Origin: Geosiphon pyriformis uo1
Lineage: Eukaryota > Fungi > Glomeromycota
Length of the DNA stretch: 64,000 bases
NCBI GenBank assembly: GCA_016748015.1
Contig: JAAOMT010000703.1
Location: forward strand, 618,255 to 682,254
Reading direction: 5' to 3'
The notes below the pieces were generated by a model. The model worked only from the letters and a program-made list of their open reading frames with translations, did no database searches and had not been told where the DNA came from. The position numbers and the translations under genes were made by a program. Below, one piece after another: positions 1 to 55,257 of this stretch. Each line of letters opens with the position of its first letter. Positions within the stretch are counted from its first letter, which is position 1.

Positions 1-3000
1 AAGCAAAATACTGGTGAAACTGTCACCCAATACCTTGCTTGATTCAATCGAATTTGCCGTCAGATTGAAGCGATTGAACAAGGATACTACACTGATTCTC
101 AGGTTTTAAATCAGTTTATTAAAGGATTAAAAAGCAGCATTTTAGGAAGAGTACGCCCTGCCCACCCTAATTCCTTACCAGAAGCCATTACGCTTACCAG
201 AGCCCTTGAATTGGCTAAGAAAGAAGCTAATTATAGTCAAATAGTTAACATGGTAATGGAAGAAAATAAGACAGAAACATTAGAGAAAAGAGTAACGCAA
301 TTAGGAGAGAAACTCTCTAAGAAAATAGAAAGTTACCTCATCCCAGATCCGAGAAAAAATACATACCAACCACTCCAAAGACGCAGCCAAGAAGTCAGCG
401 ACAGTCGAAATAATCGCTCGTCACACCAGGAATTCAGAACAGAAACGTGTACCTGCTATTTTTGCAAATGTGTAGGACATTTGATTAGTCAATATCAAAC
501 GCAAATAATATAGGAAACATGCGAAAATAATTACTACGCGCCACCTCAAATGCCCAAAAACCAGTACACACCAATACTACGCCAATATCCTATCATGTAT
601 CAAAATCAAGGAGCTTACCAGCAACAGCCCATAATAACCAACCCAAATTGACATCCCGAGGCCTGAAATCAGCCCATGTGGAACCAGAATGTGTTGGTCT
701 AGAGAAATCCAAACTGCGCCGGAACCAATCAGCAAACCAATCCAAACTACCAAAATTATCAACAAACTTACCTTAATATACCAAAAAACCTGATCATCGG
801 AAACAATGACAGTAGAAACATAAACAGAACCAAGAATTCCTCCAAATTGAGCCAGACAATACCACCAGCAGTTGCTACCGAAGATAGCAGCCTCGCAGCT
901 ATTTTTCCTTTTGAATTAGAAAAAAATGAGGCTATGTTCAGTGGAGCAGCATTGGACGAAAAATGCTCAATCACTGCTATGTATACGGAAGCCACTGTAA
1001 ACAATACCCCAATTAAACTTATCTTAGACAGCAGATCCGCTGGAAGCATCGTAACACTTTAACTAGTAAACCAACTGGGTTTCAAAGTTGATCGTGTCAC
1101 GACGTCCCAAATAATAACAGCTGATGGAAGTACAAAGCTGCCTCATGGCGAAATTGACTCATTCCCTTTCAAAATTAACAGCATAGTAATACCTACAAAA
1201 GTATTAGTAATGGACGCTACACAATATCAAGCATTAGTAAGGAATGACTGGTTAACAAAAGCCAACGCCACCCTAGACTGGACCACCCAAGAGCTTCTGA
1301 TCAATTATAATGGCCACCAGGCCAAAATTTCAGCCACTTGTGGCCACTTCCAAAAACCCAGTGCCAACCAAAGACCTACCTTCGAATTTGAGGAAAATCC
1401 AGCACTACCAGCCATCGAAACCTATCAGCTCTCTTGGGCTGATGACCAAAAAACAGGACTACCAGTCGTACCAACGTGGACCAGTGAAGAAAGATCCGAA
1501 TGGAACCAGGTAAGTTCACAAAAAAACCACCAGTGATGCAAACCAAAGCTAGAATGCTTGGTTTGCAAGAAAAAACTCTCGTCTATGACTGCGTGCAGTG
1601 CACCGGACGAAGACCCAAGAAACCCCACCCACTACTATTGTAACTGTTGTAATAAAAAAAAATATGGTTATCCAGAAAGACACGGAAAATGGGACAAGGA
1701 ACCGTGCCTCGCTTGTGGAGAACTGTTACCAAGAGGGTGCGACTGGAACGACTTACCAGGTAGAGGAGGAATGTGTGATGCAACTTGCCAATACACGATC
1801 CTCATTTGTAACTGGGTAAAAGGAGGAATGCTGTTCAAAGCAGCGTTCAACAGAGCATTAAAAAGACTACAGCACTACCCACATGACGAGGACGAGTTAT
1901 ATAACACCGCACAAGCCAAAGTAAAAGAAGGAACCGCTGAAGAAATATGATGTTGGAAAGAGTCAGCCGAAGTAGCCGACAAAGTCGCCAGCTACAACAT
2001 GTTTGACCCAGTGGACAAATTCCAGGACTATTACCAACAACTATGTCCCACTCGACAAGAGCAAGAACAATACCTTGCCCAAATCAACACTTATTTCTGC
2101 GAAAACTGTCTCATCCCATGCCAAAATCAGTGCTGTGAAGAGTGTCAAGATGAAAGGGACTTAAAAAGAAAAATAGAAATTGAGAATCAGCAGTCTCAAA
2201 ATCAATCAATAAATTAACAAGACTCACCTGATGGTCCTGAGTCAGAAAAATTTGTAGCCTATACTGACCTAGAACAGGTGACCGACATCTGATACTTTGA
2301 CAATGGGCACTTAGAAATAATACCCGAAAGAGCTCATCCAACTGACGCCAGATTCGATCTACGTTATCCAGAAAACCAATCCACAACGTTACCACCCAGG
2401 AGCATCACCAAAATCAACCTAAAAATAGCGGTTGAAATTCCACCAGGAATAATGGTTCAAATGGCATCGCGATCAAACCTCGCGAAAAAAGGAATAAGCG
2501 TTCAAGGAGGAGTAATTGACTTTGGATACACTGGAAATTTGATGGTTTTGCTACAGAACAATTCAGAAAAGCCTTATACCATTGAATCTAAGGAAAAGAT
2601 TGCACAAGCAATTTTTCTACCATTGGTAAAAATTGGAAAATTCGTGCCAGTAAAAAATCATGAGGAATTGTCACAAACAACGAGAGGAACTTTTGGTTTC
2701 AGATTGACAGGAAAAGGAATTGAAGTGAATTTCGCTAAAACAATAGAGGAAAAAGGCGAAGTAATTAAAAATGAGCAGTCCATTATGCTCCTACCATATG
2801 GAAAATCAGAAATAAGAATAAAAAGGACAATTAAAGAAAAAGACCTAATATTTGAGCCCTACCCAGAAACTTGCCAACAGTTTTTCATAGGACTTACTAA
2901 CCTTTTTATTCCAGCAGATAAAGCTCAATGGATAAAAATTCCTATCACAAACACTATAGAAGAACCTGTCTACATTCCGGAAGATACCATCATTGGATAC

Positions 3001-4545
3001 CTCGGAACAGAGCTAGAAAACGCGTCAACACCACAAAAAATTCTAAATTTCTCAGAAATTGCCCTCTACTGTGAACTCACTTCAATAAATTGGCAACAAC
3101 CATTAGAATGCTATCAATTTACACCAGAAAAATTGGCCAAATTAAACATTGGAACAATGGATCCTGACCAACAACGACAATTAAAAGCATTAATTTTAAA
3201 ATATTCTGATATATTTTCAAGAAATGGCAAATTTGGAAGAACCAACTTGGTTCAACACCAAATCCCCACTGGAGACACCAGACCTAAAAAACAATGCACT
3301 TACCGTGTCCCACCAATGGAGCATAATTTTATCAGAAAAGAAGTCCAAAGCATGTTGGAAAAAGGAATAATACAACCATCAATGAACCCATGGTCCTCAC
3401 CAGTTGTTTTAGTAAGGAAAAAGAATGGAAAAATTAGATTTTGCGTCGACTATCGCAAACTAAACAGCAAAACAACCAAAGACTCATACCCAATACTGTA
3501 AATTGACAAAATCTTCGACGTTTTTGAAGGAGCAAAATGGTTTTCTACACTGAACTTGACCAGTGAGTACTGGCAAGTGGAAATGGACCCAAAGGACAGG
3601 CATAAAACAGCATTCACAACACAAAATGGCAATTATGAGTTCAATGTAATGCCATTTGGATTAACAAACGCTCCCGCGACATTCCAAAGACTAATGGACA
3701 TAATTTACTCTGGAATCCTGTGGCAATCCATTGTTGTCTACTTGGATGATACAAATGTTTTCTCGTCAAAATTCACAGATCATCTCCAACATTTACAACA
3801 AGTTTTTGAGAGATTGAGACACGCTGGACTTAAACTAAATCTAGAAAAATGTTTCTTTGGGAAAAATGAGCTAGCATTTTTAGGACACGTAGTTGGAAAA
3901 GATGAAATAAAACCAGATCCATCAAAAATAGACAAAGTGAAAAATTTTCCAGTACTTCGAAACGTTTTAGAAGTTAGAAGCTTTTTAGGACTCGCATCTT
4001 ACTACCACCGCTTTGTAGAAAACTTTTCAAACATCGCCAAACCCCTTAATTACCTACTATCTAAAAATGTGAAGTTTGAATGGACTAAAGCACAACAAAA
4101 AGCTTTTGAGTACCTTAGACAAAAGCTCATTGAATCACTAATAATGATTTATCCGAATTTCAACAAGAAATTCAGTTTGGCCACAGATGCCTTTGGAACT
4201 GGACTTGGAGCCATTCTGTCACAAAAAGATAATAATGGAAGAGAACGTGTAATTGCTTATGCCAGCAGAAGTCTCAGTACGGCAGAACAAAACTACGCAG
4301 CACATGAACTTGAATGCTTAGCAGTAGTCTGGAGTTGTGTTCACTTTGACACATATTTATGGTACCAACTCTTTGAGATTACAACAGATCATAGAGGTCT
4401 GGTCTGGTTAAATAACAAGAAAGTGCTAAAAAAAAAATACGCCAGATGGTCACAAATATTAGCACCATATGATTATATTATCAAATACAAAGAAGGTACC
4501 AAAAATGCTAATGCCGACTGTTTGTCAAGAATGAGACACACATAA
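1..4545 (+). pseudogene. Family A Gag-PR-Cys-rich-dUTPase-RT-RNaseH polyprotein with in-frame stops
   Basis: ORF fragments at 211, 847, 1210, 1558, 1999, 2452 and 3556 are all in one frame; motifs CYFCKCVGH, ASRSNL..GGVIDFGYTG..KIAQ, PWSSPVVLV, MPFGL, YLDD, NADCLSR*. Confidence 0.93.
2290..2715 (+). pseudogene. dut: dUTPase domain inside family A polyprotein
   Basis: All five trimeric dUTPase motifs visible (D-A-x-F-D-L, RS-N-L, GVIDxGYTG, KIAQ, RGTFGF). Confidence 0.9.
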
Positions 4546-4574: not shown

Positions 4575-5954
4575 ATGAACAACCACCTTTACAAAAACCT
4601 CAGCCAATACTTGGAAACACTACAAATAGACAAAGAAATGCTAGTAAAAGAGCTAATTAAGCTCCAAAAATTAGCAAAACACTATTTCATCCAAAATTAC
4701 ATACTTTATTACCAGAATTGACAAAATCCAGATAATCCATTAAGAGTTATAACCACGGATGAAAAAGAAACTATCTTATTTAATATGCACTCAGATATTC
4801 ATTCAGGCCACTTTGGAAAAACAGCAACCATCCAACGTGCAACTAGCCATTACTATTGGCCAAAAATGAGTTCAGACATAATTCAATACATAAGAAATTG
4901 TGACTCATGCCAACAAAGAGGAGGAGCAAAAACAACAGAATTATTAAGACCAATAAAAGTTGGACAGCCATTTGACAGAATCAGAATTGATTTAGTTGGA
5001 CCCTTACCAATAACAACAAGAAACAACCATTATATTGCAGTAGCCATGGACTATCTCACCAAATGGCCAGAAGCTAGAGCTATTAAAACAGCTGATGCTA
5101 TTTCCGTAGCTTAATTCGTACATGAAAACTTAATTTGCCGACATGGATGTCCACAAAAATTACTATCAGATCAAGGCACACACTTCATAAACAGCACCTT
5201 AAAAAAACTTAGCCAAAAATTTGGAATCAAGCGACTACTGTCATCACCATACCACCCTCAAACAAATGGATTAGTTGAAAGATTTAATCGCACATTATGC
5301 AAATCACTGGCAAAAATTAGTAACAAACATAAAAAAGAATAGGATTTGTTCATACCAGCAGTACTACTAGCATATAGAACAGTAAAACAAGATACTACAC
5401 AATTCACACCGTTTGAACTAGTTTATGGAAGAAAAGCCACATTACCAGTTGAACTTACTATCCCAACTTATCTAAGTGACACTATCATGGAAGCAACATT
5501 TCAGGAAACACTACTTAGAAGAACATACGAATTAATGGGAACTTTAGAAAACAAAAGAAGAAAGGCAGCACAAAATATTGAACAATCACAAGAACAACAA
5601 AAAGTGAGACATAATAACCAATTACCAGATAATATAATTAGCTACAAAATTGGAGATAAAGTATTGTTGCATCGTACAAAAATGGAAAAACAGTGGAGTG
5701 GAAAATTTGATCACAAGTGGGATAGACCATTTTATATTCACAAAATACTTGGAAATGGAGCATACAAGCTAAAACTAGATGATAAAATATTAAGAAAAGC
5801 AGCACATGGTAACCGGCTGAAATTCTATTACAGTAAACCAGTAATAACAACAAAAACACCCAGAATTAGAACACAATTACCTTTAATTCTACCAAAACAA
5901 ATTCCACGAGATTTAGAACCAATAGTTTTAATTGAACATTATTCGAAAAGATAA
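4575..5954 (+). pseudogene. Family A integrase, separate ORF
   Basis: ATG at 4575, 29 nt after the RNaseH stop; HHCC (HSDIHSGH...CDSC), IDLVGP, SDQG, GLVERFNR, GPF-like module, tail DLEPIVLIE; no chromodomain. Confidence 0.92.
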
Positions 5955-10939: not shown

Positions 10940-10951
10940 TTTGGTGCTCTT
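10940..10951 (+). promoter_or_regulatory. Primer-binding site (TT-TGGTGCTCT), also at 15072, 16638 and 49581
   Basis: TGG two nt after the LTR CA; complementary to a tRNA ending ...GAGCACCA. Elongator tRNA-Met or tRNA-Ile(UAU) are plausible but not verified. Confidence 0.8.
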
Positions 10952-10983
10952 CCACAGAAATAACACAGCAACAACAAATTCAA

Positions 10984-13900
10984 GGTAACAATCACACCAA
11001 ACACAACAACTCTAGAGTATTATTAGTCAATTTACACTTACTGCAAACAAAAATTCAACATCCAAAATGGAATTGAAATTTTCAAGAAATCACTATACCA
11101 ATACATTGAAAATTGTATCAACAACTATTTTTTTGGAAACTATAACATTTCAGAAATCAGAAACAACCTCTACAATAATTTAATGCACTATTCACAATTG
11201 GAAATAGAAGACCTGAACAGTGAAACACTTGCTACCTACTTCCAAAAACTTAATTTTAATATTATTGAGTATTGTGAAGAAAAATACCCAGTACAATTCA
11301 AATACTCTCTTAATTTTGAATCAGAAACAGAAACAAGCAACAAAGGCAAACAAAAAGTGGAACAACACTCAAAAACCACTTCAAATACTCCAATACTATC
11401 AAAGACAACTGCCAAACACTTGCAAACCCCAGAACAAGAAACCAGTACTAGATTCTTACTCTCAGTCATCCCCTTTTCAATTTCACTTGCTCGATTACAA
11501 ACACCAAATTCACTACTTAACCATTTCTTCAGACCAGAAGATTTTCAGTCACTGAGAAATCCTACTCAACAGCAGGAACTCATATCAACAAGCACCAATA
11601 TTATTGATTACTTACAGGAAAACGAAAGTAATCATTCAGAAAACTTGGAAAGTAAAGAAACTGAATCAGAACAAGAAAAAACCACAAAAAATGAAGAAGA
11701 AATGACCATGGCTTATATTGCAAAAGTCCCAGAATTCACTGGTGAAGATAATGATACCAGCCCTTAAGAATGGCTCGAAAAAGTCCAGAAAGCAGGAGAT
11801 ACAAATGGTTGGAATGCAGCAAAAATGCTCAAAGCAATTCCATACTTTCTCTAAAGAACTGCAGAAGAATGGTTTGAAAACTTAGAAGAACTATTTAGAG
11901 ACTGGCAAGCATTCAAAGATGCTTTCTTACAACAATTTACTGACAACAACACCTCTATTACTCTCCACAATTACTTTCACAATATCAAACAAGAAACATC
12001 TAAAACTGTCATGACCTATCTTGAGAGATTTAACAAACTTCTTTGACAAATTTGACAATTGGAAACCAATGAATACTATTCCAATACTCAGATTCTGGAT
12101 CAGTTTATAGCAGGATTAAAAGACAAATTGATTAAAAAAGTCTGTCCACATGCACTAGCAGACTTAGCAACTGTCATTAGACATGCAAAGAACTATGAAA
12201 TGGCAATGAAAGAAGCAAATCACACCAAACTTGTCAACCTAGCTATTAAAGAAACCAGCTCAGCAGCTAAAGAGAAGATAGACCAACTTACAAAGAAAGT
12301 TGAAAGCTACTTTACAAACCAACAACAACAGCAGCAACAACCACAAAGATATCTACCTCCACAATGACACAACCAAAACAATTTTGGATCACTATCCAAT
12401 AACCAAACTCAAAATTGTTATTATTGTGGAATTCCAAAACATTAGAAACAAGATTGCAGAAAATTACAGAGAGACCAGCAAAACAGGAATAATTAACATT
12501 ACTCTTCACTACAACAATCTTATTATCAATTACCACTACCAACTTATTACCCACCAAAACCACAAAATCAAAACAGTTACTATCAACCAGCTTTACAACC
12601 AATTTAGCAACAATATTAGAAACCTTTACCAATTTAGCAATATCAGACACCACCCACTCAACAATATCAAGTACCAGCCAGAAAATTAATCCAACAAAAC
12701 CAATTCACATCACAAAACCGTTTTTTAACAAACAACAACAGATTTAATCACAATAATTAATTAGTTCCTCGAAATTCTGTTCAACAAAAACCCACTTAGT
12801 TTCACACTCAACCCAGTTATTTAACAATGCAAGAAGAATCGGATTTTCAACAAACTGCACTTTCTGAAGATGAAATTGCAGCATCAAAATCAAACCCTTC
12901 TAACAATACTATTCTACCAGCTCAAATTACCCAAAATGCCAACCTTTCAGATATATTTCCATTCGAATTTGAAGCAAATAAATCACCATTCTTGCTTAGT
13001 AATACAACAGCTAATGAATAAAAAGTTATCACTGCCATGTACACTAAAGCTACAGTAGAAGGAAAACCCATCCGATTAATTCTAGACAGTGAATCAGCTG
13101 GGAGTATTATCATCTACCAGTTAATACAACAGCTTCAAAAAACTGTTAACAGACCAGCCCAAACAGTAATTGTTACAACAGATAATATGAAAAAGACACC
13201 AGTAAGAAAAATTGATAATTTCCCATTCACCATTAATAGAATCATCATTTTAGTCAAAGTTCTAGTCATGGATGCACCCCAATATCAAGCTTTGATTAGA
13301 AATAATTGGCTTCTTAAGACCAATACAAACTTAGACTGGAAAACTCAAGAACTAAAAATCTCATACCAAGGACAATACATCATAGTACTTGCTACTTGTA
13401 GAACTTTCAACAAATGATCAGAAAAAGCCCCAGTATTTGAATTTGAAGAGGAAAAAGAAATGCCACTCACTGAAACTTACATGGCTTTTGGATCAACATT
13501 TAATTGGACTGAAGAAACAGAACAAGAGATTTTTGAGAATGGAAGAAAGTTAGGCACTCTACACCAGAACCACAAAAAAACCTATTATACATCCCACTCA
13601 AATGCAAAGATTGCAATAAGAAACTTTCATCTATGAGAGCTTATATTTCTTCAGAAGAGGAATATAAAACTTGCACTTGCTACTTCTGTAAAGCATGTTA
13701 TAGAGAACGATTTGGATCCCCAAAAAGAAGTGAAAAATAAGACAACACTCTTTGTCTTACATGTAAAGATATGCTATCAGAAGAATACAACTGGATTGAT
13801 ATTGCAATAAGGAGAGGAGTATGTAACCAAACCTGTCAATATGCCCTATCAATTTTGGAAAAAGTGAAAAGAGGAATACCATTTAATGCAACATACAACA

Positions 13901-14127
13901 GTGCTTTCAACAAACTCTACCACTATTCTTATGATGCTGAAATAATCTTTGATTTAGCAATGGCTTTAATTAATGAAGCCACACAAAAAGATGTCTACCA
14001 AATGAAAGAAGCTGAGTACATTGAATATACAATGGAATTAGCTGAATTCAATTATAAAAATAAAGTAGAGACATACCACCAAATTGCAAGCCACACATAC
14101 CCAATCCAAGAAGCTCAAATTCAACAA
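10984..14127 (+). pseudogene. C1 Gag-PR-Cys-rich region
   Basis: YIAKVPEFTGED, ILDQFIAGL, CYYCGIPKH, LILDSESAG, Cys-rich domain. Confidence 0.9.
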
Positions 14128-19767: not shown

Positions 19768-22700
19768 ATGCACTCCAATACCAAGCTGTAGTCAGAAATG
19801 ATTGGCTTCTCAAGGCCAATGCAAACCTGAACTGGAAAACTCAAGAACTTAAAATCTCATACCAAGGACAATATACCATAGTACCTGCAACCTGTGGTAT
19901 CTTTAACAAACAATCAGAAAAAGCTCCAGTATTTGAATTTGAAGAAGAGAAAGAAATGCCACTCACTAAAACTTACATGGCTCTTGAATCACCATTCAAT
20001 TGGGCTGAAGAAACAGAACAAGAGATTTTTGAAGAATTAAGAGAATAGAAAAAAGTTAGATATTCCACACCAGAACCATGAAAAGAACCACTATACATTC
20101 CACTAAAATGCAAAGATTGCAAAAAGAAGCTTTCATCTATGGGAGCCTGTATTTCTCCAGAAGAGGAATACGAAACTTGCACTTACTACTTCTGCAAAGC
20201 ATGCCATAGAAAACGATTTGGATCCCCAAAGAGAAGTGGAAAATGGGACAAAACTTCTTGTCTTACTTGTGGAAAAAGGCTACCAGAAGAATGCAATTGG
20301 ATTAATATAGCAATGAGAGAAGGAGTATGTGATCAGACCTGTTAATATGCTCTATCAATTTTGGAAAAAGTCAGAAGAAGAACACCATTTGATGCAGCAT
20401 ACAACAGTGCTTTCAATAAACTTTACCACTACCCTTATGATGCTAAAATAATTTTTGACTTAGCAATAGCATTGATCAATAAAGCCACCCAAGAAGATGG
20501 CTGCCAAATAAAAGAAGCTGAATACATTGAGTATATCATAGAATTAGCTGGATTTGATTATGAAGATGAAGTAAAAACCTACCACCAAATTGCAAGCCAC
20601 ACATATCTGACCAAAGAAGCTCAAATTCAATGATTAGAGCAAATAAACATTCAGTTGTGTGAAAAATGTGTTATGCCTTGTGATGACCAATGGTGTTTAG
20701 AATGTTATGCTCTCAGCATTCCTCTGCCAGATGAGAATAATGAAAATGAAATCGAATTTGGAGTATCTAAACTAGTAGAAAAACTACCAACCACCCCCAT
20801 CTATCTTCTTGAAAAGCAACCATCTCTACAACTTAAATATTTTGACAACCATGGCCAAGGAATCAGACCAAAAAAAACACACGAAATTGATGCTGGATAT
20901 GACCTAAGATACTCAGGAAAAGATACTTTGGTTCTCCAACCAAAGTCTTTGACAAAAATCAATCTCAAAATTGCTCTTGAAATTCCACCAGGAGCAATGG
21001 TTCAAATTGCCTTCAGATCATTATTGGCAAGCAAAAGAATCAATATTAGAGGAGAAGTTATAAATGCAGAATACACTGGAGACATTACCATCATGTTACA
21101 GAATAAGACAGACAAACCATTCAAAATTGAACATGCTGAAAAAAATTGCTCAAGCAATTTACTTACTCTTAATCAACATTTCGAGTTTACAATCAGTAAA
21201 CAACAGAGAACAATTGGAAAAAAGTGAAAGAAGAACTTAAGGTTTTGATTCAACTGGACAATTTACAGTTTCAGTAAACATAGCTCTTAATACACAAAAT
21301 GAATCTCACCAGATTCTTCAATTTTTCCAGCCAATTACCATTTCACCTTTTGGAGAACATCACGAAATTTACACTTGCTCAAAACCCACCACTACACAAC
21401 AAATCTTTGAATCCAATGAACAAATCTGTTTAAAGCATGAAATCTCAATTCCAAACGTTTATATTTCCAAAGAAATAAAAAAATTTTGAGTTATATTCTA
21501 CAATCCCAATAATTACTTTATTGTTTTATTAAACAAAGTGGAGATTGGAATCATACACAGCAATATTTTTCAAGATAAAAACCCTCATATTGTCTCTAAT
21601 TTTATCGAAATTGTAAAGCACACTCTATTCCCAAATTCAAATATCATTTTCACTACTGAAAACTACCACTTTTTGGAAGAAAAACTCTCTCGAATCAACA
21701 TGGATCTCTTAGAACCTTAACAACAAAGACAATTGAAACAATTGATAGCTAAATTTGCAGATATATTTGCAAAAGACAACAATGATCTGGGAAAAACAGA
21801 TATGGTTCAACATTAGATCCATACAGGAGATGCTCTACCAAAACATCAGCAAGCTTACAGAGTGCCATCTGTTAGCCACCAATTCATCAGAGAAGAAGTC
21901 CAGAGAATGCTCAATAATGGATTGATTCAACCATCAAGAAGTCCTTGGGTCTTATCAGTAGTTCTTGTCAAAAAGAAAAATGGAAAAATCAGATTTTGTG
22001 TTGACTATTGCCAAGTGAACAGTATGACAATTGAAGATGTCTACTTTCTTTTAAGAATTGATGACATGCTAGATGCTCTAGGAAAAGCCAAGTTTTTCTC
22101 AACTTTAGACTTGGAAAGTGGATACTGGCAAGTCGAAATGGACCCAAAAGACTAATCCAAAATAGCATTTACCACCCAAGGAAGAAACTATGAGTTCAAT
22201 GTTATGCCTTTTGAACTCTGCAATGTACCAACAACATTTCAGCGACTTATGAATGTTGTATATAAAGGGCTCTTGTGGCAATTAGTAGTTGTTTATCTTG
22301 ATAACACTGATGTATACTCACCAAGTTTTGAGACTTATTTTATCCACCTATGAGAAGTTTTTCAACAATTATGGAAAGCAGGATTGAAGTTAAACATTGA
22401 AAAATGTTACTTTGAAAAAACAAGCTTAATCTTTCTTGGACACATTGTTAGCAAAGATGGAGTCAAACCAAATCCAGAAACAATCAGTGCTGTCAAAAAC
22501 TTTCAAACCCCCAGAAATACCACAGAACTAAGAGGATTTGTAGGATTAGCCTCTTACTATCAAAAATTCATCAAAGGATTCTCAGAAATTGCCAAACCAC
22601 TCAATTATCTTACCAATAAAAATGTGCCATACAAATAGACTGAAGAACAACAAAAAGCATTTAAAACCCTCAAAACAAAGCTGACAACAGCCTCAGTTCT

Positions 22701-26338: not shown

Positions 26339-29300
26339 TGATTATTTTGAAAGATTTAAATCATGATTGCCAATGCCATCAGGATTCTGATCACCACTAC
26401 CACAGCCAGATTTCAGAACCACAAGTTCCTGGAAATTAACAGAATCGGAAGAAAAACAGGAAGAAGAAGAAAAAGAATCTAAAGATCAAGAATTTACTTA
26501 CCAGAACCCAATCCCAGAAAACCCAGAAATTGAAACTCCGAATTTTCAAATGCAGCACAATCAGAATGATCAAAACTCCAACATTAATAATCAACAACAC
26601 TTACCTTCAGTAATCATGATCAATCCACCCCCAGCTCCACCAATTGACAAACAGCAACAACAGTCACTTCAACCATCTCAACTACCACAGCAGCCATTTC
26701 TACAGCCACAACAACAACTTCAACAACCAAACTTGTATTCAATGGTCTATGCTCCAATAGCAAAACTCGAGAAATTTACCAGTGAAGAGGACAATGCCCA
26801 AGTATGGCTTAATGACATAGAAAAAGCCATAGCAGCTAATGAATAGAATGATGCCAGAGCCATGTAAGCCATCCCATATTTTCTCCAGGATACTGTTAAT
26901 TCATGGTACCAAAGTCTGGTCAACAAACCCCAAGATTTCAATGCATTCAAAATAGAGTTCTTAAAATACTTCAGCAACAATAACAGCATTAACAGGTTAG
27001 CAAACACCTTTACTACTATTAAACAAGAAAAAAATGAAGCAGTCACTACTTACTTAGGACATTTCCATAGGAATCTGCACCAGATCCAAGCCATTGACCC
27101 CAATTATTTCACAGTAGCCCAGATTCTAAATTAGTTTATTTGTGGATTATGCAGTAGCATCCTACAATGCATACATCCAATGCATCCTATCAATCTGCAA
27201 ACAGCCGTCACAAATGCCAGAGATTTTGAAACCACTGAACTCGAAGCTAACTACACCTAAGCCATTAATCTAGTAATGAATGGATCATTTGAATTGGATT
27301 CCAAACTGAAACAATTTAGTAATTCCATCAATCAGAAATTAGAAAGATACTTAGCTGACAATTGTGCAATTTATCAATCACTACAACAATGCAATAATTC
27401 CAGAAATGCAAATCATTTCCAGAATCAGTCACGTCTATTATTGTTGACCAATCAACAGTGACAACAGAAAATACATGTTTGCCACTATTGTGATAAACAA
27501 GAACACCTATAAATCAATTGCCACCATCACTTAAATAACCAATGATTGGGAAATCAATATCAAAATCCTGATTGCCAGTTTCAAATTCCGAATAACCCAT
27601 TAAACTCCAAACCATATCATCAAAATTACTTACCTATGACACAGCAGACACCTTATCAACCACCAGTATATCAAATGCTGATTTATTAACCGACAACACC
27701 AGTAATTTATTAGCCACAGCCACAACCCATTTATCAGCTGCAGTTTTAGGTAATATATCAGCCCCAACAAATTCAAACACTGCCACAAAACTTACTTCAA
27801 AACAGAACCCAAAGACCAAGATTGACCCAACAAAGCTGAAAATCATCGATGGTAGTCCACCAACCAATCCCCAGTTCTTCCACACAACCAGGAGAATTTT
27901 GACAATGGAATTTGGGCACTGGGTACACCCAAAACCCGAATTCCCAGAACTATTTAAGTCTCCTGGTTACCCCAAAAGACACTACTTTGAACAAACTAGA
28001 ACCAAATCAACCAGCAAAACCTACCTACAACATCCCACCAACAACCATTACTGAAGATAAATCCCTAGCTGCCATCTTTCTCTTTGAACTCAAGGAAACC
28101 ACAATAGTACTACTGTTCAGTGGAACCGCTCTAAAAAAAACCCCATTACGGCTATGTACATTAATGCCAAAGTTGATGATCAGTCTATCAAACTGATCTT
28201 GGACAGTGGATCAGCTGGCAGCATCATCACAAGACAACTCATAGACCAATTAGGTCACCGGATTGATTAAGCTGCCAGCACATACATCATCACAGCTGAT
28301 AGAGTGACCAAAACTCCAATTGGCAAAATTGATAACTTCCCGATTGAGATCAATGGCATCATGATACTCATCAAAGTCCTTGTGATAGAAGCCACTCAGT
28401 ACTAAGCACTAGTTGGTAATAACTGGCTCACCAAAACAAATGTCATCCTTGATTGGACTACTCAGAAGTTGCAGTTCAGCCAAAACAGCCAACACACAAG
28501 GGTACCAGCAATGTGTGGCCATTTCAAACCCAGCAGCATTATGCCAGTCCCACTAATCAAGTTTAAGGAAGAGGAAAGGAAACCAACATGGGAGACATAT
28601 CAAGTCTCATGGGCTGACAAAAACCACAACAAGCTGCCACCAATACTATTATGGGATGACAATGGAAAGAAAAAACAAAGAGAAGAACTTACCTAAGAGA
28701 CTGATGATCTGACCTAGACCAACAATAACAAAAATGAGCTGACACCAAACTGGGAATAGAAAAAAGAAAACAATAAAGGAAAGAAAAAAGAGAAAAAAGA
28801 AGAAACAACAACCATCAACACCATTTCTTCTAACTTCTACACTTACATTATACCACCATGATCTACCTATCATCGACCAAAACTTATATGCATTGATTGT
28901 GGCAAGAAATTGTCGTCAATAGATACATGTTGTGGTGACGACGAGGAATATGCAACAGCAACCAAATTCTATTGCCATACATGTGTCATAGAAAGGTTTG
29001 GACGACCAAAGAGGCAAAGAAAATGAGACAACTAACCTTGTCTCACTTGTGAAAAAACTCTCTTGGATGAAGGAATGTGGAATGACATTCCAGAGTGAGG
29101 AGGAATGTGTAACAAATCGTGCCAATACACGATTCTAATTAGCGACTGGATAAGAAAAGGGACACTAATAGAAGCAGCCTGGAGAAGAGCAGTACAATGC
29201 TTGAACAGTTGTCCACATGATGATGACAAGATCTGGCGAATAGCACTTGCAAAAATAAAAGAAGTGACATCCGAAGAAATTAGGGAGATCAAAAACAGCC

Positions 29301-31986
29301 CACTGGAACCTATAGAACTCGACTGGAATGAAGAATCAACCATAAATTTTCTGGAACCAGAAGAATTTCATGAACACTATCAAACTTTGGCATCCACAAA
29401 AGAAGAACAAGAAGAGCATTTAGCACAGTTAAACACTTGATTATGTGACCACTGTTTGGTTTCATGTGACTTTCAATATTGTAATAAGTGTGACCTCATT
29501 TACAATCCACTACTGCACATGATCTACACAATTCCAGAGAAAGAAGAACCAATCAGCAGCTGCACATCAGAATTGGAATCAATGTTCAATTCCAATTCAA
29601 ACTTTAACAACAACAATGATAAAAACAATGGTTTCAGCTCCACTTCAAATAGCAACAAAAATTATAATGATTCAAACTCCAATTCAAATCCTGAAACATT
29701 TATTGTACTTCTTGATCTTTCAAAGAAACAGAAACTCAAATGGGTATAGTGATAATAATGAAGATATCATGCCAGAACACATATATGATACTGATGCAGG
29801 GTTTGATCTGAGATATTCAGGAAAAAAAGCCATCAAATTGGAACCAAATTCACGCATATGTATTGATCTCAAAATAGCTCTGGAAATTCCAGCAACAACC
29901 ATGGTCCAATTAGCATCTAGGAGTAGTTTAGCAAAAAAAAGAATCAACATCAGAGGAGGAATAATTGATGCGAAATACGTAGAAAATATCATTGTCATGC
30001 TACAAAATGACTCAGAAAAGACCTATATTATAGAACTAAATAAAAAGATAGCACAGGCAATATTCTTACCTCTGGTGAAAATAGCTCAGTTAGTTTCAGT
30101 AGGAAAGAGAGAAAAATTAGGTATAACAGCAACAGAAATTTGGATCAACAGGTAGAATAGATATATCAGTTAATATGGCAGAAGAAAAAATTGTTGACAA
30201 AGAAGAAATTATCTCAACTCATCAAACAATTTTCATTCCGCCATATGACCAGTATATGTTAGCCATAAAAAGAGAAGTAAGAGATCAAGCTCAATTGTTT
30301 GAAGCAAAAGCCACTATTTGTAAATTAGAAGAGATTGGACTCATTAATTTCTACATATCAGCCAAGAGCTCCAAAAACATCAAAATCCTCATATATAACA
30401 CAACGGGAAAAGTCATCAAAATACCAAAGAGAACTATCATTGAATATTTAACCACTGAAGTTGAGGATCAACCACTAAACCACATTCCAGATTTTCCACA
30501 GCTTTGTGAATATGTGGACATTACATCACAAACCATTTATGGAAGAAGTGAATGTTATCTGCTCCAACCAGAACAATTAAAACAGATAAACATGAGGAAT
30601 CTAGATCCATTTCAACAAATACAATTAAAGATATTACTCAGAAATTTTAATGACATCTTTGCCAGTGAAAATGAATTTGGCCACACCAACATCATCCAGC
30701 ATCAAATCAAGACTGGAGATGCAATGCTAATTAAACAATGAGCATACAGAGTATCACCAGCTAGCCATAAAATCATTTGTCAAGAAATCAACCAGATGCT
30801 TAACAATGGGCTAATTCAGTCATCAATGAATTCATGGTTGTCACCAGTAGTACTAGTCCATAAAAAAAATAGAAAAATCCATTTTTGTATAGACTACTGA
30901 AAACTGAATGGAGTAACTAAAGATGATAGCTATTCAACTCCAAAGATCCAAGAACTATATGATGCTTTTGGAGGAAATAAATGGTTCTCAACACTAGATT
31001 TAAATAGTAATTACTGGCAAGTAGCCATGGATCCAGCTGACAAAAAAAAAACAGTGTTCACCACAAGAGAAGAAAATTTTGAGTTTGAAGTCATACCATT
31101 TGGCTTGATGAATGCTCCAGCAACATTCCAACAGCTCATGGAAATTGTCTATATTAGATTACTATGGAAATTAGTAGTTATGTACTTGGATAACACCAAT
31201 GTGTTCTCAAAAACATTCGATGATCATTTGCATTATCTCCAACAAGTGTTTGAAAGATTGAGAAGAGCAGAATTGAAACTAAATGCAACCAAATGTTTCT
31301 TTGAAAAAACTGAATTCAAGTTTTTGGGACATGTAGTAAGCAAAGATGGAATCAAAACGGATCCAGACAAGATTAAAGTAGTTAAGAACTTTTCAGTACC
31401 AACTAACTTGACAGAACTAAGAGCATTTTTAGGTTTTACAGACTATTATTGCCATTTTATTAAAGACTTTTCAAAACTGGCTTAGCCATTTCACCATCTA
31501 TAGACCAAGAATGTAAAATATGAATGGACTGAAGCTCAACAAGAAGCATTTGACACATTAAGAAGAAAGCTTATCCAAGCTTCAGTATTGATGTATCCAG
31601 ATCACAGCAAACCATTTATAATTACCACTGATGTATCAGGTCAAGCATTGGAAGCAGTACTATCACAAAAAAGATCAGATGAAAGAGAACATCCAGTAGC
31701 TTATGCCAGTAGAAGCTTAAGTCCAGCTGAGAAGAACTATGGAACTCCAGCACTAGAACACTTAGCTATCTATTAGGCTGTCATCAAATAGAAGAAATAC
31801 TTGAGTCAAAAGTTTAAAGTATACACTGATTATAAAGAATTGACTTCAATCCAGAAACAAAAATTTGCAGATAACCACTATATCAGATGAAAAATAGAAC
31901 TTTCACTATTCAATTATACAGTACATTATAAAAAGAGAAAAGACAATTGAAATGCCGATGGACTGTTACAAATAAGACAAATCTAA
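26339..31986 (+). pseudogene. D Gag-PR-Cys-dUTPase-RT-RNaseH, 3' part
   Basis: YAPIAKLEKF, CHYC..H, LILDSGSAG, AGFDL/ASRSSL/GGIID/KIAQ, YLDN. Confidence 0.9.
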
Positions 31987-45300: not shown

Positions 45301-47698
45301 AAAAAGAAGCTAATCACAATAAAATAATAAACTTGGTAATAAATAATAATAATACCAAAAAATTAGAAAACAAAATTACTCAACTCAAAGAGAAATTATC
45401 TTAGAAGATGAAAAATTATCTTGTTAATATTAAGTCTCAAATACCAAACTAATATTAATTATAATAACAATAAAACTAAACACTCTTTTAAGATTACAGC
45501 TATTAAAATCCAAATAGAAACCAATAAAATATACTAATGTATTATTATTATTAAAAGTACAAATATATTAAAGCCAAATGCTGATTACTATAGTTTCATT
45601 AAAATTCATATGAAAAAAATTCATAAAACCCACTTTTTAGCAATTAATACATAATACTTTAAAATTAATATTTAGTATTAATTTAATAGTATTCTTAGCA
45701 ATAATTATTATAGCAACCAAATTCAGCTCAGCCATAATACTTATCTCTATTACAACAATTATAACAATTACCAACTCCCAGATCATATTCTTAAAACTTA
45801 AATTAAAGAAAAAATTATCCACTTTTAAATTCAAACTTTTTGGATTAATCAACAACAAACACAATAATATTACAAAATTCTAATCAAAATAGATAATATA
45901 ATATTTTTATATATCATCAACAAAAATTTTTTAACTTATTCAAACCACAAAATTTCTATAATATAATGTCTTATAAAGATCAAAACATATACAATATTAA
46001 AAGTATTATTAATATTAATAAAAGTACTAGCATGATTTCCCTTATAATCATTACCAATAATAAAATATTAACTGTTATATTTTTTTTTAAACTTAAGAAA
46101 AAAAAATCCATTCCTATCTTGTTTAATAGAATTGTTTTAAATAAAAATAAACCAATTACTATTATGTACACTAAGATAAAAACAGATAATAAACTTATTA
46201 AACTAGTCTTAAATAGCAAATTAATAAAAAACATTATTATTTTTTAATTTATAAACCAATTAGGTCATTAAATTAACAAAAACATTAACACTTTTATTAT
46301 TATTATTAATAGAACCAAAAAAATACTAATCGAAAAAATTAACTTTTTTCTCTTCAACATAAATAGAATAATCATCTTTACTAAAATATTATTTATGGTA
46401 TTACTTATAGAAATTTAGGAATTCTTAATAAGAAGATAAAGTAGTCAATTAAAACTAAACATAGTAAAAGAGAAATTTTAGGATTTCTCTTAAAAAATTA
46501 CAAGATTCCAGAAATTCCAAAATTTCTGGCTAAAAAAATTAAAAAATTCAAGAAATCTTATATAACATTAATTATATATATATAGTAAGAGTATTAGAAG
46601 CAGAAAAGTTAAAATACATTTCAAAATTCAGTTCAAAATTAATATTTACAATAAATTAATTATCCAATATCCCTTTTTTTAAAAAGTAATTTTCTACAAC
46701 TTAAAGTAGAATCAATTTACACATCAATAAAAATATCAATTATTACTTAAACTCATGTTATTGTTGTTTGATTAAGAAATAATTAATTGCTTTTATTCTA
46801 TCAATATTCTATGTTGATAGAATCTAATATTTAATTATATTGAACTAATAATTCTTAATCATGGTTATTGACAAGATACTAATTTTTTATTTTTTTTTAT
46901 TTTTTTTTTATTTTTATTTTTATTTTTATTTTGTTGTTTTACTAACTAATTAAAAAAATCAAGTACTGAGTAATTTAACATCAAGAATAGTCTGGTAAAA
47001 AACCCAAAAATAAGAATAGAAATTTAAGAATAGCTTATTAAAAGAACATAACTTTTAGAATAAATTAACTATCATGCTAAAAAAAAAATTCATAGAATAA
47101 ACTTTTGAAAAAGTACTAAAACAACTATTAAATCTCTGTCTATTATACAAAAAACTTAACCAAAACCTTCAGATCACAAAATTTTTTAGATATTGTCACT
47201 ATTAACAAGCTATTAAGCACCAAATTATAGGTTTGTTATTTGTATTAACACTCCAAATAATTATTTATAATAATGAATACAACTCAATACTAAGCACTAA
47301 TTAAAAATAATTGATTAGAAAAAGCAAATGCTATTTTGGATTAATTAACTCAAAAGTTATAACTAATATATCAAAAACAATATACACAAGCACTTATTAT
47401 GTGTAAATATTTTAAAAGAGATTTTTACACAAACAATTTATCTTAATTTAAATTTGAAAAAATATTGAAAACAAAAAGCCATTAAAGCATATTAAGCTAA
47501 GTGGAATAAAAACAATCATAAAAAACTATTACTTGTTTCTATGTGGACTAATAAAATCTCTAACTTTATACTATCTTACTTTTCTTGTTTCTAATATCAC
47601 CAAAGTTATTAACCAAGATTACAATATTTAGTTTGCTAGAAAAAACTATCTTTTATAATGACTTGTGTTATTTTATACAAGAATAATCAATAAACTAC
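42333..47698 (+). mobile_element. Highly decayed LTR retrotransposon relic(s) E
   Basis: Gag-like traces near 42420 (YGNYFK) and 44850-45420 (ILNQFVK, KKEANH); protease trace near 46190; Cys-domain trace near 47630; possible decayed LTR end plus PBS at 43918-43935. May be more than one element. Confidence 0.65.
46399..47272 (+). repeat. Old solo LTR (B/D-related) in the relic protease
   Basis: Decayed ends tattact...tataata; R/U5 homologous to B/D LTRs; TSD atgg(46395-46398)/atga(47273-47276); host VM-D-x-TQY-x-AL restored on removal. Confidence 0.8.
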
Positions 47699-49580: not shown

Positions 49581-49624
49581 TTTGGTGCTCTCCCACAGAA
49601 ACAATACAGCAAAACAACTTCAAA

Positions 49625-52600
49625 GTGGCAACCACACCAGACACAACAACTCTAGAGTATTACCAATCAATTTACACCCACTGCAAGCAAAGATTCAACA
49701 TTCCAGACGGAATTGAAGTTGTCAAGAAATCAGTATACCAATACATTGAAAACCAAATCAACAATTATTTTTTTGGAAATTACAATATCTCAGAAGTTAG
49801 AAGCAACCTTTACAACAATTTAGCACATTATTCACAGTTGAAAACTGAAGACCTTAACAGTGAAACACTTGCCACTTACTTTCAAGAACTAAATTTTAAC
49901 ATTATCAAGTACTGTGAAGAAACATATTCAGTGCAGTTTCAATACTCTATTAATTTTAAATCAGAGACAGAAACAAGCAACAAAGGCAAACAAAAATTGA
50001 AGCAATACTCAAAAACCACCCCAAATACCCTAATACTACCAAAAACAACTGCCAAACACTTACAAACACTTGAACAAAGAACCAGTTCAAAACTTCTATT
50101 TACTATCACACCTTTTTCAGCTTTACTTGCACAAACACAAACACTTAATTTACCCTTGAATTGATTTGCAAGACCAGAAAATTTTACATCACTCAGAAGT
50201 CCCACCAGACAGCAAAAACTCCTTTAAACTAGTTCCAATCTTCTTGATTTTCTAGCTAAAAATCAAAGTGAACACTTTGAGACAACAGCAAACGAAGAAA
50301 ATGACTCTAAAATAACTGAAAAAAAATCAATAGACAGTGAAAACAAAGAAAACAAAATGACAGTATACATTGCAAAAATCCCTGAATTTAATGGAGAAGA
50401 TATTGAGACCAGTTCCCAAGAATGACTCGACCAAGTTACTAAAGCTGAAGATGTAAATGGATGGAATGTTACCAGAATGTTAAGAACAATTTCCTACTTT
50501 CTCAAAGGAACAGCAGGAGAATGTTTTGAAAACTTGGCCACTTCATTCAATGATTGAGACACTTTCAAAGCAGCCTTCTTTAAACAGTTCACCGACAATA
50601 ATATCTCCATCACCCTTCGAAATCATTTTCGCAATATCAAACAAGAACCCTCCAAATCTGTTATGACTTATATTGGGAAATTTAACAAACTTCTCAGACA
50701 AATTTGCCAACTTGAAACTAATGATTATTATTCTGATGCTCAAATCTTGGATCAATTTATCACTGGTTTAAAGGATAAACTGATTAAAAAGGTTCGCCCA
50801 CATGCACCAGAAGATTTAAACTCTGCCATTTAGCATGCAAAGAGATATGAAATGGCCATAGAAGAAGCCAATCGTACAAAACTCGTGAATTTAGCCATTG
50901 GAGAAACCAGCTCAGCAGCTGAAAAAAAAATTGACCAACTTACAAAGAAAGTTGAAAACTATTTCACCAACCAACAACAACAGCAACCCCAAAGATATCA
51001 ACCACCCCAAAGACAGAATCAAAACAACTTCACATCACTTTCTAATAACCAGCCTCAGAGTTGCCATTACTGTGAAATTTCTGGCCACTGGAAAAAAGAT
51101 TGCAGAAAGCTACAATGAAACCAACAAAATAAGAGTAATCAATATTACTCTTTACCACAGTAATTTTATTATCAACTACCACCACCAGCTTACTATTCAC
51201 CAAGACCCCAATATCAAAGTAACTATTATCAGCCTGCCCCACAGCCAATTCAACAGCAATACCAACAACTACCCACACAACATTATCAAGTGCCTGCTCG
51301 AAGATTAATCCTGTAAAATCAATTTACACCACAAAACCAATACCAAGTAAACAACAATAGAATCAATTCAAACAACCAATTAGTTTCCCAAAATCCAGCT
51401 CAGCCAAGACCCACTTATTATCATACTCAACCTAGCTATTTTACAATACCTGAAAAACAGGATTTTCACCATACTGCACTCTCAGAAGGTAGAGTTGCAG
51501 CATGACAACAAAACTCTTCCTATATTCTTACCACAATCTCACCAGCCAGAATTGCTGAAAACACCAATCTTTCAGACATATTTTCTTTTAAGTTTGAAGC
51601 AAATGAGTCACCATTTCTGCTCAGCAATGTGGCCGCCAACAAACAAAAAGCAATCACTGCTATATACACTGAAGCAAAAGTCGAAGGAAAGGCAATTCGC
51701 TTGATCCTAGACAGTGGATCTGCTGAAAGCATCATTACCTACCAGTTAATGCAACAGTTAAAGAGAAATGTTGACTGACCAGCTCAAACAGTAATTGTTA
51801 CTGCCAATGGCATCAAAAAGACTCCAGTAGGAGAAATTGACAATTTTCTGTTTACTCTTGATAGAATCACCATTTCAGTCAAAGTTCTTGTAATAGATGC
51901 GCCCCAGTACTAAGCTCTCATCGGAAATGATTGGCTTCAAAAAGCCAATGCTAATCTGAATTGGGAGATACAAGAGTTAACAATCTCCTACCAAGGACAA
52001 CATGCCCGGGTACCTGCCACTTGTAGTACATTCAACAAATATTCCAAAAAAGCCCCGGCTTTTGAATTTGAACTGGAAGAAGAACAGCCCATCATTGAAA
52101 CATTTGTGGCACTTGGATCAACCTCCAATTGGGCCGATGAAACTAAACAACAGTACTTTTCAACAAATGATTTTCTTGAAACAGAAGAACCAGTAACAAC
52201 TGGATGGAATGTCTCCTATTCAAAACCAGAACCACGAAAACAACGCCCCTACATTCCACTCAAATGCAAAGACTGCCACAAGAAACTCTCTTCAATGGAA
52301 GCCTGCATTTCACCTGAAAAAGAATATGAAAATCATACTTGTTATTACTGCAAGGCTTGTCATAAAGAATGATAGGGCCATCTAATAAAAAGAAGCAGAA
52401 AATGGGATAACACCCCTTGTTTGACTTGTGGAGATATGCTACTAGAAGAATGCAATTGGATTGATTTAGCAATGAAAGGAGGAGTCTGCGATCAGACCTG
52501 CCAATATGCTTTATCAATTTCAGAAAAAGTAAAAAGAGGAACACTCTTTGATGCAGTATACAACAGTGCTCTCAACAAACTGTACTATTATCCTCATGAT

Positions 52601-55257
52601 GCCGAAATGATTTTCGACCTAGCAATGGCTTTAATTAACAGAGCCACTCAAGAAAATGTTCGTCAAATGAAAGAATCAGAATACATTGCATACACTTTTG
52701 AAATCGCTGGATACAACTACAAAGATGAAATAGAAGTATATTATCAAATTGCCAGTCACACTTATCTGACCAAAGAAGCTCAAGCTCAATGGCTAGAGCA
52801 AATAAACGTTAAATTGTGTAAAGAATGCATAATGCCCTGCGATAAGCAATGGTGCTCTGAATGCTATGCTCTTAGCATTTTTCTGTCCAGTGAAAATGAT
52901 GAAAGCGAAATTGAATTTGGAGAACCTGAAGCAACAGAAGAAATTGAAACAACACCCATCTATTTTATTAAAAGTCAGTCTGCCTTACAACTCAAATACT
53001 TTAACAACAATAGACAAGGAATAAAACCTGAAAAAGCACATGAAATTGATGCTGGATATGACCTAAGATATCCAGACAAGAATACTCTTGTTCTCAAACC
53101 CAAATCTCTCACAAAAATCAACCTCAAAATTGCACTCAAAATCTCGCCAGGAGCAATGGTTCAAATCGCCTCCCGGTCCTCTCTGGCAAGCAAAGGAATC
53201 AATGTCAGAAGAGGAATAATCGATTCTGGATATACGGGAGACATTACAGTAATGCTTCAAAATGAAACTGACAAACCATTCAAGATCGACCATGCTGAAA
53301 AAATTGTCCAAGCTATTTACCTACCCCTAATCAACATTTCGAGTTTGCAACTAGTCAATCAAAGAGAACAATTAAGAAAAAACAATAGAAGAACCCAAGA
53401 TTTTGGTTCAACTGGACGATTCACAGTTTTAGTTAATATAGCTCTTAACACACAGAATGAATCCTACCAGATTTTCAGATTTCCACAACCAATTACCATC
53501 TCACCCTTTAGAGAACATCCAGAAATTTACACCTGTCCAAAGCCAACAACCACACAACAAATTTTTGAGCCCAATGAACAAATTTGCTTGGAACATAATA
53601 TTTTGATCCCAAACATTTATATTCCAGAAGGAACAAAAAAAGTCTGAGTTACTTTTTACAATACCAACAATTACCCTATAGTTCTATTAAATAACTTAGA
53701 AATTGGAGTCATTTACAGTAACATTTTTCAACAAGAACTACTCTAGACAGTTCCCAATTTTTCGGAAATTATTAGACATTCACTACCAAAAATCAACCCA
53801 AATCCTAGCTCTGAAAACTACCATGTTGTCATAGAAAAACTATTTTGAATCAACATAGGACAACTTGAACCACAACAACAAAACCAGCTCAAAGAGCTAA
53901 TTGTAGAATTTGCCAATATCTTTGCCAAAAACAACAATAACTTAGAAAGAACCAATTTGGTCCAACACAAAATTTACACAGGAGATGCCAAACCAAGAAG
54001 ACAACAAGCATATCGAGTTGCTCCAGAAAGCCACCAATTTATTCATGAAAAAGTACAACGAATGCTTAACAATGAGCTTATCCAACTCTTTATGAGTCCT
54101 TGGGCTTTACCTGTAGTACTAGTTAAAAAAAAAATGGAAAGATATAATTTTGTGTTGACTATTAACAACTCAACAGTATTACAATTGGAGATGCCTACCC
54201 CCTTCCCTAAATTGATGACATGTTAGATGCCCTTGGAAAATCTAAATACTTTTCAACACTAGATTTAGAAAGCAGTTACTGGCAAGTTGCTATAGATCCC
54301 AAAGATCGCCCCAAAACAGCATTAACCACTTAAGGTGGATATTATGAGTTCAATGTAATGCCCTTCAGATTATGCAATGCACCAGCAACGTTTCAGAGAT
54401 TAATGGATGTTGTATATCAAAGGCTTCTTTGGAAGTCAGTAGTCGTTTATCTTGATGATACTGATGTTTATTCTTCATTGTTTAAATTATACTTAAAACA
54501 CCTACGAGAAGTTTTTCAATAATTATGAAAAGCAGGACTAAAACTCAACATCGAAAAATGCTACTTTGGAAAAACAAGCTTGGCCTTTCTTGGTCATATT
54601 GTTAGTAAAGATGGAATCAAACCGGACCCTGGAAAAATTAGCACTGTTAAAAACTTTAAAACTCCTCAAAACACTACAGAACTAAGAGGATTTATAGAGT
54701 TAGCCTCCTATTATTGGAAGTTTATCAAAGGATTTTCAGAAATTGCAAAACCTCTCAACCAGCTTACCACCAAAAATGTCGAATACAAATGGACTGCTGA
54801 ATGCCAAAATGTATTTGAAATCCTCAAAGAAAAACTAATGACAGCTCCAATTCTCGCCTACTCAGATTTCAGCAACTGATTCCGATTAACAACAGATGCC
54901 TCTTATATTGCCTTTGGTGTCATCTTATCACAATTAGATAACAACAAAAATGAGCGAGTAATCACTTATGCTAGCAGAACATTAAAACCAGTCAAGAAAA
55001 ACTATTCTGCCACAGAACTAGAAACAGCAGCCATAATCTGAGTTCTACACCACTTCAACCTTTATCTTAGGCCTAAAGAATTCGATATTATTACTGATAA
55101 TATTGGACTCAAATGGCTTCAGAACAAAAATACTCAGCTAAACGCAAAACAAACCTAATGGACAAGATTTCTAGCAAACTATCGATACATAGTACATCAC
55201 AAACCAGGAAAACTCCACATCAATGTTGATTGTCTCTCCAAAATAAGACAAGATTAG
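49625..55257 (+). pseudogene. C3 Gag-CCHC-PR-Cys-dUTPase-RT-RNaseH
   Basis: Fragments at 49625, 50852, 52106, 52421 and 53957 share one frame; CHYCEISGHWKKDC, LILDSGSA, AGYDL/ASRSSL/IIDSGYTGDI/FGSTG, YLDD; one frameshift at the A-run near 54130. Confidence 0.94.

Follow-up and report, generated by a model that had tools for sequence, protein, structure and literature searches.

Host element and its setting

The window, that is, the whole 64,000-nucleotide stretch of Geosiphon pyriformis DNA that was analysed, is 30% G+C and consists of a nest of decayed Ty3/gypsy elements, which can be recognised as such by their LTRs and by the order gag-PR-RT-RH-INT. In this species LTR elements account for 41.2% of the genome (PMC11952901, available text). 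LTR pairs and interrupted genes reveal the order of nesting: element B holds C1, which holds D, which holds C2, which in turn holds a solo A-type LTR, and C3 is inserted within the LTR following C4. Element A, at the left end, carries the following features:

43..513, + strand: Gag (Ty3 capsid-like), cut by the window start and in the module's frame (Pfam Ty3_capsid, E 6.8e-5, below the curated cutoff)
904..1380, + strand: aspartic protease region, upstream of the module (weak RVP_2 match, E 0.017)
2293..2712, + strand: dUTPase, downstream of the module (Pfam dUTPase, E 5.6e-22)
3151..4545, + strand: RT and RNase H, the frame being stopped after RNase H (Pfam RVT_1 and RT_RNaseH)
4600..5954, + strand: integrase, in a frame other than that of Gag to RNase H (Integrase_H2C2, E 2.9e-16 on the C3 counterpart)

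The protease region of an intact homolog, P0158, matches Asp_protease_2 at E 2.7e-9. The Gag-Pol frame stops after RNase H at 4543-4545 in element A and at 766 in the intact metagenome copy L010, with the integrase in another frame in both. No chromodomain was seen by eye in the translation that follows the integrase of the window element.

Several other features of these elements were recorded in passing. The 146-aa segment after the dUTPase (2713-3150) has a faint dUTPase likeness in P0158 (E 0.0009) and D (E 0.002) and none in A or C2; it is possibly a degenerate second dUTPase copy. A conserved extra ORF of ~200 aa lies between the integrase and the 3' LTR (24773-25381 in C2, 38612-39220 in C1, 56913-57509 in C3, and 6318-6512 in A) and has no Pfam match. 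Four 5' LTRs are followed by a primer-binding-site-like sequence starting TGGTGCTCT (16639-16660, 10941-10962, 49581-49602, and 15071-15090). On the minus strand, 59900-62677 holds a 360-aa ORF and its decayed continuation, without a Pfam match, which by eye we take to resemble the ORF1 and endonuclease of a LINE.

The 3' flanks of eight LTRs (at 7441, 19767, 26334, 34959, 40162, 42330, 47699, and 58489) read ATGC three times and ACGG, ATGG, ACAG, ACAT, and GTAG once each. Five of the eight begin with A(C/T)G, against a background of 1.7%, and two more fit a decayed CpG; CpG is depleted in the window (observed/expected 0.24). A perfect ATGC duplication is seen at two insertions, the assignment of B's LTR being tentative.

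A cysteine-rich module between protease and dUTPase

Between the protease and the dUTPase of element A lies a cysteine-rich module of ~200 aa, in the same reading frame as gag, protease, dUTPase, RT, and RNase H. The sequence-only reading had described Cys-rich motifs at this position, and these are indeed present on the + strand, from the first Cys codon at 1555, through GKWD (1684), PCLACG (1702), and YPHD (1876), to the last Cys, which ends at 2145. The size of about 250 aa that it proposed proved too large, the conserved part being ~200 aa within a protease-to-dUTPase gap of ~300 aa that includes variable linkers. Likewise, the single Cys after the first CxxC (C19), which had been taken as a general part of the motif, is confined to certain subfamilies. 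The window holds five further copies and a relic of 29 codons:

13588..14127, + strand: copy C1 (tblastn 13597-14082), cut by an N gap at 14128
20094..20717, + strand: copy C2 (tblastn 20133-20705; tblastn and profile)
28874..29497, + strand: copy D (tblastn 28874-29491; tblastn and profile)
52250..52876, + strand: copy C3 (tblastn 52259-52864; tblastn and profile)
59135..59758, - strand: copy C4, the most decayed (tblastn 59734-59147; tblastn and profile)
47611..47696, + strand: relic E, the first ~29 codons, ending at an LTR (profile iE 0.19; blastn E 0.003)

With copy A alone as query, tblastn recovered C1, C2, D, C3, and C4 at E 3e-24 to 1e-50, and the conservation claimed for A, C1-C4, and D stands; relic E, said to be traceable, amounts to ~29 codons at iE 0.19 and is credible mainly because E's protease remnant precedes it. 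The window copies score 299-356 bits against a profile that was built from those same copies, and the best score in 10 shuffled windows was 5.7 bits. All six copies contain in-frame stops (1, 1, 2, 4, 2, and 7).

Thirteen cysteines are common to all subfamilies, at positions 6, 9, 34, and 37 (finger F1), 56, 59, 79, and 83 (F2), and 187, 190, 194, 199, and 202 (F3). They are kept across subfamilies of 28-44% identity: A, C2, C3, and D retain 13/13, the gap-cut C1 8/8, and C4 8/13. Over the 13 columns, Cys makes up 1996 of 2228 aligned residues and Tyr 146, the latter arising in dead copies through a single G-to-A change. The cysteines at 19 and 67 are subfamily-specific and fall outside this core.

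Purifying selection has kept the module. Pairwise comparison of the window copies gives a dN/dS of 0.11-0.39 for 14 of the 15 pairs (dS is saturated in the other), as compared with 0.12-0.32 for the dUTPase and 0.16-0.32 for the integrase; in the less saturated C-type pairs it is 0.13-0.29 for the module and 0.18-0.32 for the dUTPase. The modules of two metagenome copies, L010 and L013, differ with pS 0.78 and pN 0.25. The low dN/dS indicates that the module was preserved during the period in which the subfamilies were active. It is acidic in all four intact copies (pI 4.7-5.5, net charge -6 to -14), F1 by itself being neutral to basic (0 to +6).

Architecture and predicted fold

In copy A, the module can be sub-divided into three putative fingers and a helical part:

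1555..1650, + strand: F1, CxxC-x24-CxxC, predicted treble-clef zinc finger, residues 6-37 (pLDDT 79-88)
1705..1788, + strand: F2, CxxC-x19-CxxxC, second putative zinc finger, residues 56-83 (four Cys in all subfamilies; pLDDT 57-70)
1789..2097, + strand: helical core, a three-helix bundle (81-129) and acidic helices (139-182) in the AlphaFold2 model
2098..2145, + strand: F3, CxxC-x3-C-x4-CxxC, five-cysteine knuckle (pLDDT 50-65)

The stop of copy A at codon 137 falls within the helical core. F3 is the best conserved part across lineages, and the spacing of F2 in the metagenome lineage is CxxC-x20-C-x5-C. From these cysteine patterns the module very probably binds zinc, and three ions are likely.

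AlphaFold2 model 1, from a 90-row alignment, reached pLDDT 75 and pTM 0.46, with the bundle helices (81-129) at 87-91; model 2, of the ORF on metagenome contig L023, reached pLDDT 74 and pTM 0.41, with F3 at 50-59. Strands are predicted in F1 at 18-20 and 32-34 and a helix at 35-42, which gives the treble-clef layout of a knuckle CxxC, a hairpin, and a CxxC at the start of the helix. When model residues 1-45 were compared with treble clefs using VIA, the families were tied at Z 2.5-4.4 and rmsd 1.6-3.7: Ada2 ZZ 4.4 (rmsd 2.4, 40 aligned), LIM 3.8 (rmsd 1.6-2.1), p62 ZZ 3.8, ClpX 3.5, IRF2BP2 RING 3.4, GATA 3.2, Pygo PHD 3.0, and MYM TRASH 2.7. F1 is thus predicted to be a treble clef, tied among ZZ, LIM, ClpX, GATA, RING, and TRASH. 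The helical parts gave generic helical matches (best Z 5.3 for model 1 and 6.0 for model 2).

Searches for a catalogued domain

The proposal of an unassigned multi-zinc domain outside canonical gypsy Pol holds, since the libraries searched gave no confident match. Pfam searches with pieces of copy A, eight aligned members, and the metagenome copies gave a best E of 0.009, PHROGs with five proteins 0.023, and an 8-row profile against PDB sequences 1.2; a profile that included the dUTPase and RT gave at least 60 listed matches, all of them to dUTPase or RT only. The structure prediction and Foldseek check suggested earlier was also run, and returned no confident match to a domain catalogued at this position: model 1 had no match at E<=0.001 in PDB and BFVD, and the best E for model 2 in PDB was 6.2. 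In the wide VIA comparison, none of 48161 chains reached Z>=8 with either model, and the matches covered helical parts only; they say little about F2 and F3, and the module may yet have a known fold. The best ESM Atlas values, 0.87 and 0.82, should be regarded as leads only. The full-text literature, outside of which lie most subscription papers, Repbase, and GyDB, yielded no published description of the module.

Named zinc-finger families were also compared site by site. A PHD finger is rejected because its C4HC3 ligand pattern is not conserved and Pfam gives no match. For a LIM domain, the two-residue spacer is absent, F1 and F2 being separated by 18 residues in A and by 10 in L010, and the fold match covers one finger. 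A ZZ domain would need a second CxxC inside F1 and a conserved His pair; both are absent, and the Z of 4.4 covers the first site. MYND is an interleaved two-zinc pattern; here the spacing differs and F1 is predicted to be self-contained. A His-Me finger nuclease (Endo VII/HNH) would need a catalytic His on the first strand and an Asn after the second CxxC; in the module, strand 18-20 carries no conserved His, the residue at position 38 differs between subfamilies, and the BFVD matches are weak (E 0.2 or worse). The spacing of TRASH/zf-FCS/MYM fingers is CxxC-x19-22-CxxxC, which F2 fits in Geosiphon-type copies; Pfam gives no match, the MYM structure 2das reaches Z 2.7 on F1, and F2 itself is modelled at pLDDT 57-70.

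Relatives and range

A search for homologs gave 297 matches, the best 120 of which are all Geosiphon pyriformis gene models, as are the matches listed by a further search (at least 29); among the matches listed, the closest are up to 88% identical to copy A over near full length. Hundreds of gene models in this species carry the module under the name 'hypothetical protein', and naming it would clean the annotation. A profile search of 1.84 billion representatives gave 378 matches at E<=0.001, the best 150 of which were considered; additional lineages may be present among the rest of these and of the 297. Sixteen were traced to source, 13 to G. pyriformis and three to ENA records; in one of the latter, P0158, protease, module, dUTPase, and RT lie in a single unbroken ORF, and none of the 13 Cys is missing.

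Scanning metagenome contigs for the motif yielded 28 matches, five of them true homologs and 23 due to chance. Contigs L001, L008, L010, and L013 carry a version of the module ~22% identical to copy A, and all 13 Cys are kept in the three that span the whole module (L008, L010, and L013); the profile-profile match to this lineage has a probability of 97.6% (E 3.7e-12, 150 columns). L010 contains a single uninterrupted Gag-to-RNase H ORF (6159-766), the Gag of which already carries a CCHC knuckle.

In L023, a single 2071-base contig, the C-terminal half (helices and F3) ends an ORF with a stop right after F3 (profile iE 9.5e-19). The next ORF on the same strand (1391-294, minus) encodes an integrase with rve (E 7.5e-6, below the cutoff) and Chromo (E 2e-15); neither dUTPase, RT, nor PolB is in view on the contig. 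The element is a candidate Maverick-like or Ginger-like one. Since the C-terminal half lies here beside an rve-chromodomain integrase, part of the module may be shared between element classes. Adintovirus/Maverick integrases have a predicted chromodomain, and related polymerase sequences have been reported in Rhizophagus (PMC8502044, available text); Mavericks are expanded in Glomerales (PMC11952901, available text). Protein and motif scans of viral contigs found no relative of the module. The sole locus from prokaryote genomes, L031, was discarded, since the pattern had forced the match and the frame is riddled with stops.

The protease-RT interval in the clade

For the RT-RNase H comparison, 95 of the 120 best relatives had a long match and at least 46% identity, and P0158 brought the set to 96. 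Judged by motif, the protease-RT interval contains a small finger in 27 of these, a dUTPase alone in four, the module with dUTPase in two, and none of these in 63. The small finger, WKGP-x3-CWC-x10-CxxC plus a helix, was located by motif in P0312-P0404, at 3846-3750 of L010, and at 1503-1400 of L013; its carriers include Rhizophagus clarus proteins. It co-occurs with the module in L010 and L013, where Pfam gave no match for it, and the motif was not found within the window. The module thus shows the protease-RT interval of this gypsy clade to be a slot for selected accessory fingers. In two of the RT relatives, P0367 and P0404, which have no dUTPase, a NUDIX domain (PF00293) represents a further nucleotide-pool enzyme of the clade.

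The RT tree gives strong support to each of the two module-bearing lineages but does not join them, the backbone being open; a single clade of module bearers is not rejected (p-AU 0.427), and the dUTPase tree is likewise without resolution. These trees are compatible with a single gain as well as with a cassette transfer.

Proposed role and alternatives

We tentatively favour the module as an unnamed zinc-dependent protein-binding accessory module, or adaptor, belonging to a Ty3/gypsy lineage of fungi; that it binds protein, in some broad sense, is likely. Gag, protease, module, dUTPase, RT, and RNase H appear to form one ORF, and the module would therefore be made one-to-one with the capsid and packaged. 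The element's protease would then free it or leave it attached to the dUTPase, and a basic protein would be bound by the fingers together with the acidic helices. This partner would most likely be a host factor by which the element is restricted or silenced; retroviral accessory proteins grip host factors of this kind. Structurally, F1 comes closest to ZZ (Z 4.4) and LIM (Z 3.8) fingers, at rmsd 1.6-2.4, and fingers of these types bind peptides or proteins. It should be kept in mind, however, that all structural Z values are below 6.1 and tied, that the tied set includes DNA binders such as GATA (Z 3.2), and that a shared fold by itself shows no function. The C-terminal half in L023, which ends an ORF without a dUTPase behind it, is as would be expected of a portable accessory, and the presence of the module in only two of 96 RT relatives indicates that it is dispensable for retrotransposition.

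The sequence-only reading had offered a nucleic-acid-binding, a ligase-like, or a reader function, and each has lost ground. A nucleic-acid helper, that is, a second nucleocapsid-like or cDNA-binding module active in packaging or reverse transcription beside the dUTPase, is rather unlikely. It would suit a module that is in the Gag frame and adjoins the dUTPase, a loose motif for which lies behind an F3-like motif in 63 of 75 collected proteins with a long tail; treble clefs include DNA/RNA binders, some of the weak matches to the helical parts are winged-helix or transposase domains (Z 4.8-5.0), and Juno elements have an extra knuckle after the dUTPase (PMC5408684, available text). Against it stand the net acidic charge of every intact copy, the acidic run (DEDE in copy A) that opens the last predicted bundle helix, and the CCHC knuckle already present in the L010 Gag. 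A RING-like cross-brace, whether ubiquitin ligase or substrate-binding RING, is clearly improbable. Its ligands would be C6, C9, C19, H/C31, C34, C37, C56, and C59, a spacing that is present in subfamilies A and C (C19 in 29/35 and 89/97 rows; Cys or His at position 31 in 32/36 and 80/99), and IRF2BP2 RING occupies the top Foldseek rows (E 0.4, probability 0.85). Ligands 3 and 4 coexist, however, in only these two of six lineages, and D, D2, F, and the metagenome lineage each lack at least one of them: position 31 is Cys or His in 0/36 D and 0/3 F rows, position 19 provides a ligand in 0/6 D2 rows, and the metagenome lineage has neither. The eight ligands of C3HC4 or C4C4 are therefore absent as a conserved set, the invariant C79 and C83 would be left orphaned, and the Foldseek match has an rmsd of 10 over 63 columns, VIA limiting it to residues 3-45 (Z 3.4).

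A chromatin or CpG reader that steers integration would account for the non-random flanks and could be fitted to the CpG depletion of the window; the tied folds include those of ZZ and PHD readers, and the acidity suits histone tails. We find it distinctly unlikely, as in both A and L010 a stop and a change of frame separate the integrase from the Gag-to-RNase H part, so that a fused tether would need recoding, the PHD ligand pattern is absent, and a 4-bp target preference is normally set by the integrase itself. A structural or enzymatic module in which F3 binds an iron-sulfur cluster, or provides a shared metal site for oligomerisation, is suggested by five conserved Cys instead of four in all lineages, including L023, and by the trimeric state of dUTPases of this class; it is very unlikely given that the F3 spacing is not known as an Fe-S motif and that, Cys apart, the cross-lineage alignment shows no conspicuous invariant residue of a catalytic type. 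The broken state of all six window copies might suggest a captured fragment that rides along neutrally without a role in the element. This is extremely improbable and already largely refuted by the low dN/dS between subfamilies whose synonymous sites are close to saturated and by the intact in-frame copies in a distant lineage.

The protein-binding accessory reading can be addressed directly, as the intact natural copies in L010 (3010-3579, minus strand) and P0158 (342-549) make the function of the module testable. If it counters host silencing, this would bear on the expansion of elements in a CpG-depleted genome. A bolder version, which we consider unlikely, would have a host-countering family shared across the mobilome of glomeromycotan fungi, exchanged between gypsy and Maverick-like elements, packaged at capsid stoichiometry, and binding a host silencing or restriction protein. 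If true, the module would be to elements of fungi what accessory proteins are to retroviruses, and would become a candidate driver of the Geosiphon LTR expansion.

Comparison with known systems

Among treble-clef families, ZZ (Ada2, p62), LIM, the ClpX ZBD, GATA, and TRASH/MYM superpose on model residues 1-45 (rmsd 1.6-3.6, Z 2.5-4.4), but F1 alone matches, and the module conserves none of the second zinc sites found in ZZ, LIM, RING, and PHD. The second Cys-rich motif of badnaviruses, CX2CX11CX2CX4CX2C, is likewise an additional Cys cluster in a retroelement polyprotein, but it lies before the protease, and by-eye comparison finds its six-Cys spacing in none of F1-F3.

Gypsy elements of fungi, rotifers, and planarians are already known to carry a dUTPase between protease and RT (PMC2864245, PMC5408684, PMC6431247). 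The available text of a fungal LTR survey (PMC3248453) makes no mention of dUTPase, zinc, or PHD. PosPlaTy3-5 of Postia placenta and elements of Phanerochaete and Tuber have the dUTPase in this place, as the window element does; they are chromoviruses, with no Cys module mentioned in the available text (PMC2864245), whereas the window element has a 200-aa, 13-Cys module before the dUTPase and no chromodomain seen after the integrase. The planarian giant gypsy element Burro shares in-frame accessory domains and a dUTPase-like domain between protease and RT, but its extras are MATH, SUMO-like, BCL-2, and env-like, and the available text mentions no such Cys module (PMC6431247). Juno, of bdelloid rotifers, shares an extra Pol zinc-binding motif next to the dUTPase, between protease and RT; it has one small knuckle after the dUTPase, as opposed to the three-finger helical module that precedes it here (PMC5408684, available text). 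The module is a real, uncatalogued domain in an already known kind of element.
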